From: a virus | Taxonomy: Duplodnaviria > Heunggongvirae > Uroviricota > Caudoviricetes | Direction: 5' to 3' (one strand) | IMG/VR virus record: IMGVR_UViG_2703718772_000005 | Length of the DNA stretch: 14,846 nt | Part shown: positions 243 through 7,783 of the stretch, one piece after another | How positions within the stretch are numbered: the first letter of the stretch is position 1 | Layout: every line of letters starts with the position of its first letter | The notes under the pieces: model-generated | The model's database searches: none | Told to the model about the DNA's origin: nothing | The model's input: the letters and a program-made list of their open reading frames with translations, nothing else | Translations under genes and position numbers: made by a program

Positions 243-271
243 AGTATATGGCTTTTAATCCAGTTTTGCAA
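243..271 (-). promoter_or_regulatory. Candidate sigma70 late promoter (PR'-like), overlapping the Q stop codon
   Basis: On the minus strand: -35 TTGCAA (266-271), 17-nt spacer, -10 TATACT (243-248), A/T-rich upstream. Position immediately 3' of a Q-like gene and 5' of an intrinsic terminator matches the lambdoid PR'-qut-tR' layout. Confidence 0.45.
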
Positions 272-1028
272 TATTTTGCTGTAAAAATGCTGCCTTTTGT
301 TTTGAACGTGTTCTCGTCACAAGCAATAAAGCATCACTATCAAGCTGTAGAAAAATGTGCTTCATTGCAACCCAGCGTTCAGTAAATGTCTCGGACCAGT
401 TTTTTGTTGTCACTCCCACCAATGATGCCAGTGTCTGGTATTCATAGGCCTCACGCCCTGCAAGTTCGCTCTTCACATCCTGTGCAGCCAGCCAGATTAA
501 CGTCTTCAGGCGATCCAGTGTCTTACCTGCAATTTTTCTGTTACTTAACAAATCTTTAAACTCGCTCCATGCCCATTGCGTTATGGTGACCTGATGCCCC
601 CATCGAACGCTTTCGCTGTAACACCAAAGCAACCATGCTTTCTGATGTTCATCGAGAGACAAAACCGCGCGGCGCCATGAAGAGGTTGAGAATTCAACCG
701 GGCTGACCAAAGCAATGGATGAACCTTTTGCGTACGACTGCTTACCGGAAGTCGGCGTATTATCCAGCGTAATCATCTTGCCAGTTACCACATCCAGAAT
801 GCGCGGCTTCTTTCGTTTGTATGTACCAGTATCAAATTGTGCATGCTCCTGCCAGGCTTCGAGCTGGCCTTTCGTTGCTCCGTTCAAGTCAGCAGTAGCT
901 GCCATAAGTTGCTCACGAACATACTGTAAATATTGGGTATTCATGCAGTAAATCCTTTCTATATTTTGGCATAATTCTTCAACATTCGGTAATCGTTCAA
1001 AACCGAATCGGGGAAACGACATAAGCAC
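255..1028 (-). CDS. Q-like late-gene antiterminator (call mainly positional)
   Basis: 257-codon ORF directly downstream of ninH/rusA in the nin operon orientation, followed by a promoter plus terminator pair. I do not recognise which Q family it belongs to. Start is uncertain: track start is GTG at 1028; in-frame ATG at 1022 and ATG at 944 (AGGA 8 nt upstream) are alternatives. Confidence 0.55.
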   Translation of the reverse strand: MLMSFPRFGFERLPNVEELCQNIERIYCMNTQYLQYVREQLMAATADLNGATKGQLEAWQEHAQFDTGTYKRKKPRILDVVTGKMITLDNTPTSGKQSYAKGSSIALVSPVEFSTSSWRRAVLSLDEHQKAWLLWCYSESVRWGHQVTITQWAWSEFKDLLSNRKIAGKTLDRLKTLIWLAAQDVKSELAGREAYEYQTLASLVGVTTKNWSETFTERWVAMKHIFLQLDSDALLLVTRTRSKQKAAFLQQNIAKLD

Positions 1029-1135
1029 ACGAGCCCCCAGCGACAGCGAAGGAGTTCTGATATATAAGACTCAGACATCATTCATTCCCCGGTTCTCCAA
1101 TATCTGTTTCACTCATCATCCATAACTACCTGTAA

Positions 1136-1420: not shown

Positions 1421-2380
1421 ATGAAAAAAAGTGTCATCGCTGGCGTCTTTATTGCTCTGTCATTTACCACGTGTTCAGCTATCGCGAACAGCCTTGCATT
1501 ATCATTAGCAAATGATGATGCAGGGAAGTTTCAACCAATACTTAATGATATTTATGGCAATAAACATGAAAACAGAGATGATTACTCACAAGGCTTATTT
1601 CTGGGATATAGCCACGATATCTCAGACTCGAGCCAATTATCTCTCCATATTGCGCAAGATATTTACTCTCCATCAGGCAGTAATAAAAGACACAACACAG
1701 CTGTAACTGGAGACAGAGCTTTTAGTGCATACACTCACACTGGTATTGAATGGAACTCCCTTGCGAATGACTGGATTCGCTATCGATTAGGTACTGACAT
1801 AGGTGTTGTTGGCCCCGACGCAGGCGGTCAGAAAGTACAAAATAAAGCTCATGAGATTATTGGGGCAGAAAAATATCATGCATGGGATGATCAAATAGAG
1901 AATCGCTACGGTTATACTGTAAAAGGGATGCTATCCATGACACCAAGTATGGATATTTTAGGTGCTAATGTTGGATTATACCCTGAAGTTTCTGCTGTTA
2001 CTGGAAACTTATTTCAATATGTAGCATATGGCGCAACCATTGCCATTGGTAATGATAAAACCTTCAATTCGGATAATGGCTTTGGTCTGCTGGCTCCCCG
2101 TGGTTTAATGCATATGTCCGATACAAGCGGATTCAAATACAAGATTTTTGCAGGTATGGAAAGACGAGATGTCAATCGCAACTATACTCTCGAAGGAAAA
2201 ACAATACAGACGAAACAAACAACAGTATCGCTAAACAAAACTGTTGATGAATATCAAGTTGGCGCAACAATTGGGTATGCACCTGTAGCCTTCACACTAG
2301 CATTTAATAAAGTAACATCAGAATTCAAGACAGGGGATGACTATTCATTTATAAATGGAGCAATCACCTTCTTTTTTTAA
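1421..2380 (+). CDS. lpxR: Outer-membrane beta-barrel, LpxR-family lipid A 3'-O-deacylase-like (prophage cargo gene)
   Basis: 319 aa, same length as Salmonella LpxR as I recall it. N-terminal signal peptide with AIA cleavage motif; C-terminal Phe (ITFFF) typical of OM barrels. If cleaved after Ala22, mature positions 9, 10, 34, 122 are N, D, S, H, matching my recollection of the reported LpxR active-site residues N9, D10, T34, H122. AT-rich and on the opposite strand to flanking phage genes. Confidence 0.7.
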   Translation: MKKSVIAGVFIALSFTTCSAIANSLALSLANDDAGKFQPILNDIYGNKHENRDDYSQGLFLGYSHDISDSSQLSLHIAQDIYSPSGSNKRHNTAVTGDRAFSAYTHTGIEWNSLANDWIRYRLGTDIGVVGPDAGGQKVQNKAHEIIGAEKYHAWDDQIENRYGYTVKGMLSMTPSMDILGANVGLYPEVSAVTGNLFQYVAYGATIAIGNDKTFNSDNGFGLLAPRGLMHMSDTSGFKYKIFAGMERRDVNRNYTLEGKTIQTKQTTVSLNKTVDEYQVGATIGYAPVAFTLAFNKVTSEFKTGDDYSFINGAITFFF

Positions 2381-3426: not shown

Positions 3427-3631
3427 TTACCTTCCCTCGCAATTGAAGAATTGACTGAAGGTCTTTTTTAATAAATATGCGAGTGCGAATTGAGCAGTAG
3501 TTTTCCTTCATTCTGGCGTAGTAATAGTCCTTTCTTTGCTTAAGTTTGTTGGCATCCGCTGTCATCCAGTCTTTTACAGCAAACTTAATTAGCCAGCGGT
3601 GGCAGAGATACCATTTCAGGTAATCACTCAT
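3419..3631 (-). CDS. Hypothetical nin-region protein (70 aa), occupies the position of ninG in lambda
   Basis: ORF whose ATG lies 5 nt before the ninF stop (8-nt overlap) and whose stop overlaps the ybcO start. Basic, W/Y-rich; no family recognised. Confidence 0.45.
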   Translation of the reverse strand: MSDYLKWYLCHRWLIKFAVKDWMTADANKLKQRKDYYYARMKENYCSIRTRIFIKKDLQSILQLRGKVNG

Positions 3632-3800
3632 CGTCTTCTTCCTCGTACATTGAGCTATTCGGATCGCTCATCAGTTCTGCACAGCAGTGCTCACACACGT
3701 GAACTTCCAGCACATGCAGCTTCTGACCGCAGTTAGCGCACGTTAAAGCTCGCTCGACGCTTTCTTTCTGGTATTGAAGGGATTGGGATGGGCTAAGCAT
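3624..3800 (-). CDS. ninF: NinF-like small zinc-ribbon protein (58 aa, below the ORF-track cutoff)
   Basis: Hand translation gives [58 protein letters not shown], which matches lambda NinF as I recall it. Two Cys pairs (CxxC ... CxxCC) and an acidic tail. ATG overlaps the stop of the upstream gene. Confidence 0.8.
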   Translation of the reverse strand: MLSPSQSLQYQKESVERALTCANCGQKLHVLEVHVCEHCCAELMSDPNSSMYEEEDDE

Positions 3801-4165
3801 TATTGGATTCTCTGCATCATGAGAAAGACAATCATGGCGGCGCGAAGGGGATTTTCATGTATAGCTCGCTTAGATTTACAGTAGGCCACACCGCGTGCAC
3901 CCCACTCGTCTTCATCGAGATTGATAATGCTAATCCTGTATTTTTCAATAATCGGCCATGAGTCTGCTGGGTTTGCGCATGGGTTAAAGGATCCGCGCTC
4001 AACTTCTACTTCAACTGCGTCTCCGTTTACAATGTCTCCCTCAAATGAGACAAACACCATATCGCCATTCTCACCTTCTTTGTAATCCGGCGATCCGTTA
4101 TGAATGGCTTCGAATACCGCCACGTTAATTTCAAAATCACTTAACTGTGAATAATCCATTGTCAT
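3800..4165 (-). CDS. Hypothetical nin-region protein (NinX-like position), about 121 aa
   Basis: Track ORF 3800..4201 begins at GTG. The ATG at 4163-4165 forms an ATGA overlap with the ninE stop, consistent with the coupling pattern of the operon; ATG at 4157-4159 is an alternative. Acidic protein, family not recognised with certainty. Confidence 0.55.
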
Positions 4166-4338
4166 TTCCTCGCACGATGTCTTAGCCACCGGATATCCCA
4201 CAGGTGAGCCGTGTAGTTGAAGGTTTTTACGTCAGATTCTTTTGGGATTGGCTTGCGTTTATTTCTGGAGCGTTTCGTTGGAAGGTATTTGCAGTTTTCG
4301 CAGATGATGTCGGTGATACTTCGTCGCTGTCGTCTCAT
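4162..4338 (-). CDS. ninE: NinE-like protein (58 aa, below the ORF-track cutoff)
   Basis: Hand translation gives [61 protein letters not shown] overlaps the ninB stop (ATGA) and its stop overlaps the next start (ATGA). Confidence 0.8.
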
Positions 4339-4745
4339 TCGTACCTCCTGTCGGTAAATCTGACACCATGACCAATAGCCCAGGCTGTTGTGTACTCGAT
4401 AAGACTTGCCATACGCTTCACACTCATCTGCGCGCTGCTTTCGCGAATGTTGACGTATTCGCCTTCAAGCCCGGGAAAAACATCAGCTTCCTGTTTTGTT
4501 GCCACTGCATGACCGCTGATCAACAAAACCTTCCATTGTTCTGGTTTTAACCATTTGCCGCACCATTGAACCTGACGAGCGATATCCGCCAGCATCGCGT
4601 GAAATTTTGCGTTCTGGTCAAGGTTGCGCTTGTAGTCAGTAATGCGGATGGTGACTGGCTTGTCTTTATCGAGTGGTGTTGCGAGGATGGCATTTATTGC
4701 AGCTTGCTGTTGTTGCTTAGTTCGGAGGAAGATTGTTTGCTTCAT
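4335..4745 (-). CDS. ninB: NinB (Orf-family recombination mediator)
   Basis: 136 aa, similar to lambda NinB (N-terminal MK..., LDQN, W.GKWL motifs as recalled). First recognisable nin gene of the operon. Confidence 0.85.
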
Positions 4746-5079
4746 CGAAATTCTTCTCTTTAATTCCAGCGGCTCTGATAGCTTTCATTACTGCAATTAC
4801 CGTTTTGTCTCTCCCATCCTCATAACCCATCGCATAAGCACCTTCTTCACCATCTTTCCAAAAGTCGTCATTCGATTCGGGCCAGTCAATATCCAGTTCA
4901 ATAGCTGCTCGCGATGCCTGCCACGTTTGCCAGTGGCCTTGAACATCGTCCATCACGTATTGACCACCAATATCACCACTGCCAATTTCATGGTGATTTT
5001 CAGGGTAACGGATAAGGTCTGAGGATTCGCCTCCACGTCGCAACCAACTTTCTTCAAACTGCTTTCTTGATTCGTCCAT
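4717..5079 (-). CDS. Hypothetical acidic W-rich protein (120 aa)
   Basis: ORF with SD GAGGG about 10 nt upstream of ATG 5079; its 3' end overlaps the ninB start by 29 nt. No family recognised. Confidence 0.5.
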   Translation of the reverse strand: MDESRKQFEESWLRRGGESSDLIRYPENHHEIGSGDIGGQYVMDDVQGHWQTWQASRAAIELDIDWPESNDDFWKDGEEGAYAMGYEDGRDKTVIAVMKAIRAAGIKEKNFDEANNLPPN

Positions 5080-5096
5080 CGATACTTACCCTCAGT

Positions 5097-5303
5097 TCAA
5101 CTCACAAAACTCCACGCCATTTTTGCTACAGCGACAGGCATAACACCGATAATCACCCACAGGAAAATGCTACCGAAAAGCACACCCACCAGGTCTTTAC
5201 CTTCGCCTACCAACCGGACAAAACTGCTGGCAACAACAATGAACGTCGCCACCATCCACATAGCACCGAGAATCCTCAATGCAGAGAAAATTAACTCAGC
5301 CAC
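5097..5303 (-). CDS. Small hydrophobic protein, two predicted transmembrane segments (68 aa)
   Basis: GTG start with a very strong SD (GGGGGAGGG, 6-nt spacing). Two about 25-residue hydrophobic stretches separated by a short EGKD loop. Lies directly downstream of an intrinsic terminator. Confidence 0.4.
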   Translation of the reverse strand: MAELIFSALRILGAMWMVATFIVVASSFVRLVGEGKDLVGVLFGSIFLWVIIGVMPVAVAKMAWSFVS

Positions 5304-5318
5304 GATTTACCCTCCCCC

Positions 5319-5350
5319 AAATAAAAAGGCCTGCGATTACCAGCAGGCCT
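5319..5350 (-). terminator. Intrinsic terminator between the 96-aa and 68-aa genes
   Basis: Minus-strand RNA AGGCCUGC-UGGUAAUC-GCAGGCCU (8-bp GC-rich stem) followed by UUUUAUUU; 26 nt downstream of the 96-aa gene stop. Confidence 0.55.
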
Positions 5351-5375
5351 GTTATTAGCTCAGTGATGTAGATGG

Positions 5376-5666
5376 TCATTGCCTTACCTCCATAAGCGCC
5401 CTATTAATAAACGCCGTCATTGGATTTGCACATCCCCACCCCGTACCATCTGGATTTCTTTTAATTGGCTCCTTCTTCACTTTGCGTTTTGCATAAATAA
5501 CCGTCTTCCACTTACGCTCAACAACACTCAAATGTCCTTGTTTCACCATATGCCTTGCTGCTTGAGCGATTCTGTTATTTGGTATTCCGGTGATCAGTGC
5601 TAATTCATGTGGGGAGAATTGTTCATGAGTTTTCAGATATTCCAGGATGATTTCTTTTCCAGTCAC
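5376..5666 (-). CDS. Hypothetical DNA-binding protein (possible winged helix), 96 aa
   Basis: GTG start with SD AGGAG 7 nt upstream and an in-frame stop 4 codons upstream. Central segment (ELALITGIPNNRIAQAARHMVKQGHL) looks like a helix-turn-helix; basic C-terminal half. First gene on the minus strand after the rearrangement junction. Confidence 0.55.
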   Translation of the reverse strand: MTGKEIILEYLKTHEQFSPHELALITGIPNNRIAQAARHMVKQGHLSVVERKWKTVIYAKRKVKKEPIKRNPDGTGWGCANPMTAFINRALMEVRQ

Positions 5667-5694
5667 GATCTGCTCCTGTAACTATCCCATGTAA

Positions 5695-6288
5695 ACGCAT
5701 CTGAAACTGCAGACTGCGCAGGATTCAGACAATGGATTTTCGGCGCTTGAACAGGCGCTGCTGCGGTATATCGCCGCCGGTCTTGGCGTTTCCTACGAAC
5801 AGTTGTCCCGGGATTACTCGAAGGTCAGTTATTCAAGTGCCCGCGCCTCCGCCAATGAGTCGTGGCGCTATTTTATGGGACGACGAAAATTTATTGCGTC
5901 CCGGCTGGCCACGCAGATGTTTTCCTGCTGGCTGGAAGAGGCACTTCTTCGGGGGATTATTCGTCCGCCACGGGCGCGTTTTGATTTTTATCAGGCGCGA
6001 TCAGCCTGGTCACGGGCTGAGTGGATTGGAGCCGGAAGAATGGCCATTGACGGGCTCAAGGAAGTCCAGGAATCAGTGATGCGCATTGAGGCCGGACTGA
6101 GCACGTATGAGAAAGAGCTGGCGCTGATGGGCGAGGATTATCAGGACATTTTCCGCCAGCAGGTCAGGGAATCTGCTGAGCGACAAAAAGCCGGACTCTC
6201 ACGTCCGGTGTGGATAGCGCAGGCGTATGAGCAGCAGATAGCGGAGAGTCGCAGGCCGGAAGAGGAGACAACACCACGTGAGACGTAA
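5695..6288 (+). pseudogene. B: Portal protein B, 5'-truncated remnant (C-terminal about 195 codons only)
   Basis: Open frame from stop at 5692-5694 to 6288, no ATG before the TTG at 5803. Sits immediately upstream of and overlapping gene C, as the portal gene does in lambda; about 1 kb of expected upstream coding is replaced by minus-strand nin-module genes. Confidence 0.7.
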
Positions 6289-7783
6289 TCTTTCACACAT
6301 TATTGCCGCAGCATTCAATGAACCGCTGCTTCTGGAGCCCGCCTATGCGCGGGTTTTCTTTTGCGCGCTCGGGCGCGAGATGGGGGCATCAAGTCTTTCG
6401 GTACCACAACAGCAGGTACAGTTTGATGCTCCCGGAATGCTGGCTGAAACGGACGAGTACATGGCCGGAGGTAAACGACCGGCCCGTGTTTACCGGGTGG
6501 TGAACGGTATTGCTGTACTGCCGGTGACCGGCACGCTGGTGCACCGGCTGGGGGGTATGCGGCCATTTTCCGGAATGACAGGCTATGACGGCATTGTCGC
6601 CTGTCTTCAGCAGGCAATGGCGGATAGCCAGGTGCGGGGCGTACTGCTGGACATTGACAGTCCGGGCGGGCAGGCCGCCGGCGCGTTTGACTGCGCTGAC
6701 ATGATTTACCGCCTCCGTCAGCAGAAGCCGGTCTGGGCACTGTGCAATGACACGGCCTGCTCTGCAGCCATGCTGCTGGCGTCGGCCTGCTCCCGACGGC
6801 TGGTTACCCAGACATCCCGTATCGGCTCCATTGGCGTGATGATGAGCCATGTCAGCTATGCCGGTCATCTGGCGCAGGCCGGTGTTGATATCACGCTGAT
6901 TTACTCAGGGGCGCACAAGGTGGATGGCAATCAGTTTGAAGCGTTGCCGGCAGAGGTTCGCCAGGACATGCAACAGCGCATTGATGCGGCGCGCCGGATG
7001 TTTGCTGAAAAAGTAGCGATGTATACCGGTCTGTCTGTTGATGCTGTCACGGGAACAGAGGCCGCCGTTTTTGAAGGTCAGTCCGGCATTGAGGCCGGGC
7101 TGGCGGATGAATTAATCAATGCGTCGGATGCCATCAGTGTGATGGCCACGGCGCTGAACAGTAATGTCAGAGGAGGCACTATGCCGCAATTAACTGCAAC
7201 GGAAGCCGCCGCGCAGGAGAACCAGCGAGTGATGGGGATCCTGACATGCCAGGAAGCGAAAGGACGTGAACAGCTTGCCACGATGCTGGCAGGACAACAG
7301 GGCATGAGCGTTGAACAGGCCCGGGCGATTCTGGCCGCGGCGGCACCACAGCAGCCGGTGGCATCCGCGCAGAGTGAAGCCGATCGCATTATGGCGTGTG
7401 AAGAAGCGAAAGGTCGTGAACAACTGGCGGCAACGCTGGCGGCGATGCCGGAGATGACGGTGGAAAAAGCCCGCCCGATCCTGGCTGCTTCACCGCAGGC
7501 GGATGCCGGACCCTCACTCCGTGATCAGATCATGGCACTGGATGAGGCAAAAGGGGCTGAGGCGCAGGCTGAACAGCTGGCTGCCTGCCCGGGAATGACT
7601 GTGGAGAGCGCCCGGGCTGTGCTGGCTGCGGGATCAGGTAAGGCAGAACCGGTCTCTGCATCCACAACCGCCATGTTTGAACGCATCATGGCGAACCATT
7701 CACCGGCAGCGGTACAGGGTGGCGTGCCACAGACGTCAGCAGACGGTGATGCGGACGTGAAAATGCTCATGGCCATGCCATGA
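6278..7783 (+). CDS. C: Head maturation protease/scaffold protein C (lambda gpC-like)
   Basis: 501 aa. N-terminal two-thirds strongly resemble lambda gpC (FNEPL.LEPAYARVFFCAL, GIAVLPV.GTLV, GMTGY.GI, VWAL.ND, SIGVMM.H, ITLIYSG.HKVDGN). GTG start with SD GAGGAG upstream; overlaps the portal stop. Confidence 0.9.
   Translation: MRRNLSHIIAAAFNEPLLLEPAYARVFFCALGREMGASSLSVPQQQVQFDAPGMLAETDEYMAGGKRPARVYRVVNGIAVLPVTGTLVHRLGGMRPFSGMTGYDGIVACLQQAMADSQVRGVLLDIDSPGGQAAGAFDCADMIYRLRQQKPVWALCNDTACSAAMLLASACSRRLVTQTSRIGSIGVMMSHVSYAGHLAQAGVDITLIYSGAHKVDGNQFEALPAEVRQDMQQRIDAARRMFAEKVAMYTGLSVDAVTGTEAAVFEGQSGIEAGLADELINASDAISVMATALNSNVRGGTMPQLTATEAAAQENQRVMGILTCQEAKGREQLATMLAGQQGMSVEQARAILAAAAPQQPVASAQSEADRIMACEEAKGREQLAATLAAMPEMTVEKARPILAASPQADAGPSLRDQIMALDEAKGAEAQAEQLAACPGMTVESARAVLAAGSGKAEPVSASTTAMFERIMANHSPAAVQGGVPQTSADGDADVKMLMAMP
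7181..7783 (+). CDS. Nu3: Nu3-like scaffolding protein from an internal in-frame start within C
   Basis: In-frame ATG at 7181 preceded by AGGAGG (7171-7176). In lambda the scaffold Nu3 is translated from an internal start in the C frame (established knowledge); the exact start here is inferred. Confidence 0.5.
   Translation: MPQLTATEAAAQENQRVMGILTCQEAKGREQLATMLAGQQGMSVEQARAILAAAAPQQPVASAQSEADRIMACEEAKGREQLAATLAAMPEMTVEKARPILAASPQADAGPSLRDQIMALDEAKGAEAQAEQLAACPGMTVESARAVLAAGSGKAEPVSASTTAMFERIMANHSPAAVQGGVPQTSADGDADVKMLMAMP
7226..7631 (+). repeat. Three diverged tandem repeats (about 36-40 codons each) in the C/Nu3 scaffold domain
   Basis: Protein-level repeats RVMGILTCQEAKGREQLATMLAGQQGMSVEQARAILAAA / RIMACEEAKGREQLAATLAAMPEMTVEKARPILAAS / QIMALDEAKGAEAQAEQLAACPGMTVESARAVLAAG, starting near 7226, 7381 and 7523. 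DNA copies are diverged, so the duplications are old. Confidence 0.7.

Follow-up and report, generated by a model that had tools for sequence, protein, structure and literature searches.

A conserved 68-codon gene for a predicted membrane protein directly behind a tR2-type terminator in a lambdoid nin region

The locus and its state in the window

The locus lies on the minus strand of a 14,846-nucleotide stretch of Caudoviricetes DNA (IMG/VR record IMGVR_UViG_2703718772_000005), the whole of which is referred to as the window. It consists of a short hydrophobic gene, the terminator in front of it, which is assigned to tR2 below, and the genes on either side, which are listed here in the order in which they would be transcribed.

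5699..5700, no strand: rearrangement junction, 33 nt upstream of the start of the Ren-like gene
5376..5666, minus strand: small Ren-like / MarR-like gene (96 aa), final gene ahead of the terminator
5310-5379, minus strand: conserved module of ~70 nt (NinA start, tR2 and Shine-Dalgarno sequence) of lambdoid phages that differ in the flanking genes
5296..5379, minus strand: NinA-like ORF of 27 codons, MTIYITELITGLLVIAGLFIWGRVNRG, with its own Shine-Dalgarno sequence GGAGGT, spanning the terminator
5350-5327, minus strand: terminator hairpin AGGCCTGC-TGGTAATC-GCAGGCCT with an 8-bp stem and an 8-nt loop
5326-5319, minus strand: U-tract TTTTATTT of tR2
5318-5310, minus strand: Shine-Dalgarno sequence GGGGGAGGG, its core GGAGG 7 nt before the GTG
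between the Shine-Dalgarno sequence GGGGGAGGG and the GTG, minus strand: 6-nt spacer TAAATC
5303-5301, minus strand: GTG start codon of the 68-aa ORF
5097-5303, minus strand: 68-codon gene with a GTG start for a predicted two-helix hydrophobic hairpin protein (PHROG 1165; RefSeq WP_000818841.1)
4717..5079, minus strand: next nin-region gene, 120 aa, PHROG 343, a variable neighbour and not an obligate partner
4335..4745, minus strand: ninB (Orf recombination mediator; Pfam NinB, E 1.5e-55), which anchors the identification of the nin region

On the minus strand, the Ren-like gene is thus followed by the hairpin, the 68-codon ORF, the 120-codon ORF, ninB, ninE and ninX, and onward to Q, with Pfam E-values for NinB, NinE and NinX ranging from 1e-55 to 1e-19 and with PGAP annotating genes for NinF, a DUF1364 protein, RusA, NinH and Q-type antiterminators further downstream. 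The Ren-like gene matches phrog_1687 (E 6e-40) and phrog_142, 'Ren-like exclusion protein' (E 4e-13), and is 97% identical to the 'Ren-like exclusion protein' of mEpX1, with PGAP calling it a hypothetical protein; its stop codon is located 25 nt before the hairpin. In lambda, every gene beyond cro requires antitermination by N, and the nin genes can be dispensed with (PMC10695390), the designation 'nin' standing for N-independent, as deletion of the terminators of the region removes the need for N (PMC5630979). The pool from which nin regions are assembled has been put at 30-50 genes, with about ten per phage (PMC5630979).

The copy of this operon in the window is cut off from its upstream part. 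Beyond 5699/5700 the opposite strand carries a portal gene that is truncated, followed by head genes of the lambda type, and the replication genes, pR, nutR and N, which are expected upstream of 5699, are absent, with neither a nut site nor an N gene anywhere in the window. Sequence identity to a defective prophage carried by E. coli O111:H- 11128 and its relatives is 100% over the window, apart from a 1314-bp element of the IS3 family that these genomes have exactly at window position 5699/5700. As there is no pR, nut or N upstream, antitermination cannot act in cis on this copy. The window copy of the operon is probably transcriptionally orphaned, and the nin genes left intact in it probably represent a silent remnant or, alternatively, a recombination reservoir for incoming phages.

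A terminator and Shine-Dalgarno module shared with lambda

The initial annotation had drawn attention to a terminator hairpin at 5319-5350 on the minus strand that ends a few nucleotides before an unusually strong Shine-Dalgarno sequence and the GTG start of a 68-aa hydrophobic ORF. The hairpin is present, with a stem-loop at 5350-5327, in which 6 of the 8 bp are GC pairs (terminator scan), and the U-tract at 5326-5319, and so are the GTG start and the hydrophobic ORF (GRAVY 1.55) behind it. Folded alone, the segment of hairpin and U-tract has an energy of -15.7 kcal/mol, compared with a mean of -6.5 +/- 1.9 kcal/mol for shuffled controls (z = -4.7), of which 0 out of 200 were as stable. A generic terminator scan of 3500-6500 found 5 candidates against 3.4 expected, no enrichment over chance, and the credibility of the hairpin therefore rests on its own stability and on its identity with lambda tR2.

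The adjacency of terminator and ribosome binding site is real and even closer than described, as the distance between them is 0 nt, the Shine-Dalgarno sequence directly abutting the U-tract. Its duplex with the anti-Shine-Dalgarno sequence (-11.8 kcal/mol) ranks second of the 18 start sites scored in the window, after rusA (-12.2 kcal/mol) and with ninE (-11.6 kcal/mol) and a head-decoration gene at comparable energies; the site is strong, as had been stated, but not unique. Promoter-like sites were not found within 3500-6500, which includes the interval between the terminator and the ORF, which leaves read-through of the terminator as the only way to transcribe the ORF. An explanation by a riboswitch or small RNA was dropped, because an Rfam scan of the whole window matched no family.

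When window 5270-5410 was aligned with the sequence between ren and ninB of lambda and with two mEp phages, only 2-3 base differences to lambda appeared in the block 5310-5379. The near-invariant stretch extends from the ATG at 5379 through the Shine-Dalgarno sequence and takes in the hairpin, the U-tract and GGGGGAG; hairpin, U-tract and flanks are identical to lambda J02459 40571-40634. With a 72-nt query from this block, 406 phage records were recovered at 90-100% identity, among them lambda, P22, HK022, HK97-like phages and many Stx1 and Stx2 phages. The terminator carries the GenBank label 'tR2' in HK620, Nil3 and Lahn3, and the same feature is labelled 'rho-independent terminator' in mEp235, Emek and P22-pbi. 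The same sequence serves as the standard lambda tR2 cassette in transcription templates, and the lambda tR2 U-tract has been called 'near-perfect' (bioRxiv 10.1101/453969). With its stable, GC-rich stem followed by the U-tract TTTTATTT, with hairpin and U-tract matching lambda tR2, and with a Ren-like gene before it and the first nin gene behind it, all on one strand, the hairpin is, by sequence and position, the early terminator tR2 of lambda-like phages.

The comparison with lambda is instructive also with respect to what surrounds the terminator. Hairpin, U-tract and Shine-Dalgarno sequence are base for base the same; in both cases they separate ren from the first nin gene, and a NinA ORF runs through the terminator. 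On the other hand, the lambda Shine-Dalgarno sequence serves ninB directly, whereas in the window genes of 68 and 120 codons precede ninB; spacer and start read GGGAAGTC-ATG in lambda and TAAATC-GTG in the window; and the window lacks the upstream pR, nutR and N.

That the block behaves as a portable module becomes evident from 120 viral contigs with the exact tR2 sequence, in which similarity begins exactly at the ATG (usually within ATGA or TAAATG) in at least six upstream contexts. The downstream side is equally variable. Among the 118 contigs with enough downstream sequence to call the first gene, this gene is ninB in 59, a member of the 68-aa family in 29, a gene for a 108-aa protein in 12 and another gene in 18, the latter comprising two families with 7 contigs each and three further genes in the remaining 4. 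Besides ninB and the 68-aa family there are at least five unrelated first genes, and roughly one in four phages with the module has a member of the 68-aa family as the first gene behind tR2. As ninB and other genes are located behind the same block, the layout of terminator and Shine-Dalgarno sequence is not specific to the 68-aa gene; and as the first genes vary and the lambda Shine-Dalgarno sequence drives ninB, a toxin-specific reading of the layout loses its basis. The layout is ordinary phage operon architecture that belongs to the delayed-early pR operon, and tR2 and the architecture of the nin region are already known. A terminator followed by a strong ribosome binding site is here the textbook lambda tR2 junction, reused before many first nin genes, and is not to be taken for a hallmark of toxin control.

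The module also contains a reading frame of its own, a 27-codon ORF through the terminator that is absent from the initial annotation. Preceded by a Shine-Dalgarno sequence with an energy of -10.6 kcal/mol, this NinA-like ORF starts with an ATG overlapped by the TGA of the Ren-like gene (ATGA), reads through the hairpin and the Shine-Dalgarno sequence of the 68-aa ORF and ends with a TGA at 5298-5296 that overlaps codons 2-3 of the latter, so that ren, NinA and the 68-codon ORF form a chain of overlapping stops and starts, as is typical of nin regions (PMC8022706). The same mini-ORF is annotated as 'ninA' across 'terminator tR2' in HK620, SPN9CC, Nil3, P22-pbi and Lahn3, and the ninA genes of P22, HK620 and lambda have 27-29 codons and span tR2, their equivalent in the window being 5296-5379. 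The lambda NinA start site is reported to be translationally active, with NinA translation reducing the efficiency of tR2 by only about 10% (PMC4824070). As NinA ends inside the 68-aa gene, termination-reinitiation may supplement the Shine-Dalgarno-driven start at the GTG.

In some records, such as HK630 and Lahn2, the label 'NinA' is set over or beside the 68-aa ORF. The equation of the 68-aa ORF with NinA that such database labels imply was considered and rejected: HK620 and SPN9CC place ninA on the 27-codon ORF, and the 68-aa ORF starts after the terminator and in another reading frame.

The 68-codon ORF and its predicted product

The 68-aa ORF matches PHROG 1165 with an E-value of 1.8e-36, residues 1-68 aligning with positions 1-68 of the 68 profile positions, is annotated by PGAP as WP_000818841.1 and is found as the exact same protein on at least 1000 contigs. 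A tblastn search detected it in 107 phage records, the copies falling into three allele classes, an Escherichia window-type class (86-98% identity), an HK620-type class (~54-58%) and a Salmonella P22-like class (~41-44%), each of exactly 68 codons and free of indels; the Salmonella class combines an ATG start with a lambda-like spacer and keeps the ORF. Carriers of the gene include HK022 and mEpX1, and the ORF of the Stx2a prophage of E. coli O157:H7 Sakai is about 94% identical. Annotation of the ORF is inconsistent, as it is missing in HK620 and H-19B and shortened in mEp235.

The initial annotation had named conservation of the ORF among related prophages, by synonymous-site analysis, as a check, and the outcome spoke for the ORF: it is conserved across phage records, the Nei-Gojobori (NG86) dN/dS between classes amounts to 0.24-0.35, with dS values of 0.9-2.0 that are partly saturated, and in distant comparisons none of the other five frames reaches a pN/pS as low as that of the annotated one, the two shifted frames showing pN/pS of roughly 0.7-1.3. 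Inside the window-type class 17 synonymous and 27 non-synonymous polymorphisms were counted (omega ~0.5), and among close alleles omega is ~0.5-0.7. Purifying selection on the ORF is only moderate and weaker within than between classes, which plausibly fits transmembrane helices that tolerate swaps among I, V, L, M and A.

In the alleles examined, the antisense frame contains hardly any stop codons and has a worse pN/pS than the sense frame; the antisense ORFs 5067-5294 and 5167-5358 on the plus strand were rejected as by-products on this ground, and the stop-free antisense is tentatively attributed to avoidance of TTA, CTA and TCA codons in the sense strand.

More distant relatives were identified by an exhaustive HMMER search of 1.84 billion cluster representatives, which returned only 17 clusters. 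Relatives of 63-66 aa with 30-38% identity keep W16, F47, W49, G53, P56, K61 and W64, and a search with one of the distant relatives recovered the Salmonella alleles in turn. Three of these relatives could be located. Two lie inside a run of small phage early genes that overlap one another, and one of these two immediately follows genes for O- and DnaC-like replication proteins; the third (P0128, L017) ends its run beside a convergent primase-like gene. As the latter has no recognisable replication genes before it, the argument from a shared neighbourhood rests on two of the three. In the two relatives inside runs no terminator was found directly upstream of the gene, so that adjacency to a terminator is not a trait of the family.

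Cumulatively, these data bear on the concern, raised initially because of the size of the ORF, that it might be a spurious call. On that reading the sequence would be conserved for RNA- or DNA-level reasons or would simply represent young mosaic DNA. Such a reading can point to a short ORF with a GTG start, to the omega of ~0.5-0.7 among close alleles and to the uneven annotation in HK620, H-19B and mEp235; the probability that the frame stays open by chance, 0.12-0.18 per allele pair, is not negligible either and renders the open frame alone weak evidence for a gene. It does not readily account for the retention of 68 codons and of the hydrophobic pattern across alleles that differ in 35-43% of their nucleotides, with random substitution attaining the observed GRAVY in 3.7% of trials, nor for the annotated frame being the best of six by pN/pS in distant comparisons, for the W/G/P/K/W motif shared with the 30-38% identical homologues in unrelated nucleotide contexts or for the Salmonella alleles which, with ATG and a different spacer, still keep the ORF. 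A spurious ORF thus has a very slight probability, the concern being largely answered by the PHROG 1165 match, the 68-codon alleles, dN/dS and the homologues, and the 68-codon ORF is most likely a genuine gene.

The gene is broken in some phages. Of the complete copies behind tR2 in viral contigs 25 of 28 are intact and 3 are broken, and a premature stop codon is found in the H-19B copy and in one of the 28 viral contigs, which fits a dispensable accessory gene. A scan of genome contigs recovered 4 loci only, including a 'Cellvibrionaceae' and a 'Collinsella' MAG contig that look like mis-binned enterobacterial phage DNA. The gene that follows the 68-aa ORF in 37 family loci belongs to PHROG 343 in about 20, is ninB in 10 and another gene in 7, and the 68-aa gene is consequently without an obligate partner. 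It is a catalogued, uncharacterised and non-essential accessory member of the nin-region pool; a literature search for the protein accessions and the PHROG identifier gave no match and no reports on expression, translation or phenotype. With the members of this pool (ninB-ninH, ninX/Y/Z, rusA, roi) it has in common that it is small, tightly packed and dispensable, belongs to the delayed-early genes and is scattered in patchy, mosaic fashion over the lambdoid phages of Escherichia and Salmonella (PMC5630979; PMC8022706). It differs in that its product is one of the few predicted membrane proteins and is covered by PHROG 1165 only, with neither a Pfam family nor a name.

Hydropathy divides the 68-aa protein, whose GRAVY of 1.55 lies within the family range of 1.3-1.6, into two hydrophobic stretches at about residues 11-29 and 38-59, separated by a short G-E-G-K-D turn. 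An L-V-x-x-G-K-D turn followed by an A-K-x-A-W-R-F-(V/I) tail is conserved in the alleles. AlphaFold2, run with an alignment of 16 sequences, predicts helices at 2-33 and 38-67 (mean pLDDT 89, pTM 0.67), and the two approaches agree, as a prediction, with the two-transmembrane protein of the initial annotation. The distribution of lysine and arginine mildly favours a cytoplasmic location of both termini, and the product most likely inserts into the inner membrane.

Pfam, NCBIfam and PADLOC contained no family for the 68-aa ORF at E <= 0.1, and among eight family members searched against Pfam at E <= 10 only noise was obtained (T4SS_pilin 0.027, DUF6773 0.047, holin 3.1, each in one of the eight). 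A profile search of PDB sequences returned nothing, and a Foldseek comparison of the AlphaFold2 model with BFVD gave nothing better than generic helical hairpins, none of them at E <= 0.001; fold comparison of a two-helix hairpin is uninformative. As for known anti-phage defence components, no PADLOC-DB family was matched at E <= 0.1.

Expression and possible roles of the 68-aa protein

Processive antitermination is of the N/nut type in most of these phages, whereas HK022 relies on put RNA. In an intact phage, transcription from pR would cross the replication genes and ren and arrive at tR2, where unmodified RNA polymerase would mostly stop; a polymerase under processive antitermination, of the N/nut type as in lambda or of the put RNA type as in HK022, would pass, and read-through would yield transcripts of the 68-aa gene, the other nin genes and Q. 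In lambda, termination at tR2 in vivo affects up to ~0.9 of unmodified polymerase and has an efficiency of ~0.8 in the native sequence with an upstream stop codon 18 bp away (PMC4824070), and the terminator is overridden by N/nut-modified polymerase (PMC4824070, PMC10695390, PMC5630979). By analogy with lambda biology, expression of the 68-aa gene would depend on antitermination and, because the gene would be transcribed by read-through, it would be a delayed-early lytic gene that is silent in a repressed lysogen. On the read-through mRNA ribosomes would initiate at the strong, conserved Shine-Dalgarno sequence and the GTG, and ribosomes that finish NinA, which ends 5 nt inside the gene, may re-initiate there, the product being a helical hairpin of 68 residues that would most likely go into the inner membrane. 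The best-supported reading, which is quite probable, is that tR2 gates the nin-Q part of the pR operon with the 68-aa gene as a delayed-early gene behind it. The initial annotation had read the layout as keeping expression of the gene low or conditional; conditional expression holds, as no promoter-like site was found behind tR2, but what is gated is the whole nin-Q operon and not this gene in particular.

The gate might also be thought of as mainly translational rather than N-dependent, with ribosomes on ren and NinA suppressing termination and the 68-aa gene thereby following the translation of ren. The short distance of the Ren-like stop codon to the hairpin (25 nt) and a NinA ORF with a good Shine-Dalgarno sequence that runs through it would be compatible with such a mechanism, and ribosomes near tR2 can indeed repress termination almost fully (PMC4824070). 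However, in the native lambda sequence termination is still ~0.8 efficient with the stop codon at 18 bp and the effect of NinA amounts to only ~10% (PMC4824070), and the nin phenotype demonstrates that removal of the terminators is needed for N-independence (PMC5630979). A mainly translational gate is, on balance, very unlikely, and antitermination at tR2 is the preferred reading.

With respect to the function of the protein, the initial annotation had taken the layout to mark a gene of the toxin or holin type, that is a small membrane toxin or holin-like protein whose expression is kept low by the terminator. Class II holins and pinholins such as S21 of phage 21 have ~68-71 residues and two hydrophobic helices. 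The 68-aa protein resembles these S21-type pinholins in size and in its two predicted hydrophobic helices, a likeness drawn from general knowledge of the class and not from an alignment, and its expression does hinge on terminator read-through. Small size and at least two transmembrane helices are, though, not specific to holins, and the protein has no match to a holin, toxin or defence family at E <= 0.1 (Pfam, NCBIfam, PADLOC), the single holin hit in eight members at E <= 10 (E 3.1) being noise. Unlike a pinholin gene, the 68-aa gene is part of an early operon; it lies in the early nin region, separated from the downstream Q by 4 kb and over ten genes and far from a late lysis cassette with its endolysin and spanin genes, and the ORF lacks a dual-start motif. 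Characteristics of type I toxins (Hok, Ldr, TisB) are likewise absent, as there is no own promoter, no Rfam match to an antisense or small RNA and no family match. As the same terminator and Shine-Dalgarno sequence also precede ninB, coding for a recombination protein, and genes for other soluble proteins, the inference from the layout does not hold, and a toxin or holin is highly improbable. Our best guess, a weakly supported one, is an accessory inner-membrane factor in lytic growth and not a lysis or toxin protein.

T4 Imm is a small two-transmembrane protein that is made early in lytic infection and blocks superinfection. A comparable assignment of the 68-aa protein, as a lytic-phase factor for superinfection exclusion or blocking of DNA injection or as a modulator of a host inner-membrane protein, would be in line with a small, predicted two-helix membrane hairpin expressed early, with a conserved G-K-D turn and a C-terminal A-K-x-A-W-R-F motif that could form an interaction surface, and with the lack of a fixed neighbour gene, which suggests that the protein probably acts alone or on a host target. 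The likeness to Imm is one of size and timing, drawn from general knowledge, and is purely analogical: the 68-aa protein has no detectable homology to Imm or to any other exclusion protein, no PADLOC match and no informative structural match. Such a role is unlikely. Quite unlikely as well is the more specific proposal that the 68-aa hairpin is a dedicated delayed-early membrane effector of lambdoid and Stx phages, made only after antitermination at tR2 and coupled in its translation to NinA, and that it might prevent a second DNA injection or adjust, in lytic growth, the activity of a transporter, protease or cell-division component in the host inner membrane. Were this true, it would assign a function to a widespread gene that Shiga-toxin phages carry without a name, and NinA would serve as a coupling device. 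The 107 phage records with the 68-aa gene include most of the Stx2a phages listed, and the function of its product would contribute modestly to the understanding of Shiga-toxin phage biology.

Reading frames over tR2 and the 68-aa gene

Two frames on the plus strand and one on the minus strand overlap the 68-aa gene or the lambdoid early terminator tR2 that precedes it:

5296-5379, minus strand: NinA-like ORF of 27 codons, spanning the tR2 hairpin
5067-5294, plus strand: antisense ORF of 75 aa, overlapping the 68-aa gene
5167-5358, plus strand: antisense ORF of 63 aa, overlapping the 68-aa gene

The hydrophobic core of the NinA-like peptide, TGLLVIAGLFIW, is encoded by the tR2 hairpin itself. 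In the 120 viral contigs with the exact tR2 sequence, codons 2-10 of this ORF carry 8 distinct synonymous variants (ACC>ACT, ATC>ATT/ATA, CTA>CTT/CTG/TTA/TTG) against 5 conservative non-synonymous ones, counts which hint that the peptide, as well as the RNA, is under selection.

The antisense ORFs, on the other strand, are treated as artefacts rather than genes, since on pN/pS the antisense frame scores less well than the sense frame. Stops are nearly absent from the codon-aligned antisense frame in the alleles examined, a scarcity attributed to a putative avoidance of TTA, CTA and TCA codons on the sense strand.

Annotation and integrity of the 68-aa gene

The 68-aa gene is annotated inconsistently between phage records, being without annotation in HK620 (AF335538; 701-904) and H-19B and shortened in mEp235 (1577-1783), where an internal start gives a 52-aa protein; other records place 'NinA' labels beside or over it. 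Some copies are broken. The HK620-type allele of H-19B (AF034975; 701-904) has an in-frame stop at codon 15, which recurs in the HK620-type allele of one IMG/VR contig (1 of the 28 complete viral-contig copies), and in the Salmonella phage 146851_sal5 a frameshift near the 3' end of the gene results in a fused ORF of 104 aa. Two non-enterobacterial MAGs, Cellvibrionaceae (L005) and Collinsella (L007), each include a contig with both the tR2 block and the gene, the latter at 90-96% identity; these contigs most likely come from Escherichia phages and were mis-binned.

Gene exchange and rearrangement around the nin-Q segment

The module of tR2 and Shine-Dalgarno sequence also precedes other genes. 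In 12 of the 118 viral contigs with sufficient downstream sequence, the first gene encodes a 108-aa protein (N-terminus MADWQIPIIILSGASLVAGFILLKK) that likewise has an N-terminal hydrophobic segment, and the start context, GTGGCTGA, is the same. A 92-aa gene, directly behind tR2 in other phages, shares the C-terminal half (…WQASRAAIELDIDWPESNDD…) of the longer PHROG 343 ORF of the window, and this common half points to mosaic recombination inside the PHROG 343 gene.

4717-4745, minus strand: 29-nt overlap of the PHROG 343 ORF (120 aa) with the start of ninB
1421-2380, plus strand: lpxR (lipid A 3'-O-deacylase family), on the opposite strand to its neighbours
2524-2595 and 255-1081, minus strand: features on either side of lpxR

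Upstream of the Ren-like gene, the window lacks at 5699/5700 a 1314-bp IS3-family element (termini TGAACCGCCCCGG...CCGGGGCGGTTCA) that each of the listed closest E. coli O111 genomes carries at precisely this position. As no target-site duplication surrounds the element in these genomes and its flanks are unrelated, with the nin operon on one side and a truncated portal gene on the other, the arrangement suggests either an IS-associated rearrangement at 5699/5700 or a window sequence from which the IS has been removed.

Within the nin-Q segment, lpxR is flanked by a truncated antitermination-protein pseudogene on one side and by ylcG and an intact Q-type antiterminator gene on the other, and has the appearance of an inserted moron or cargo gene.
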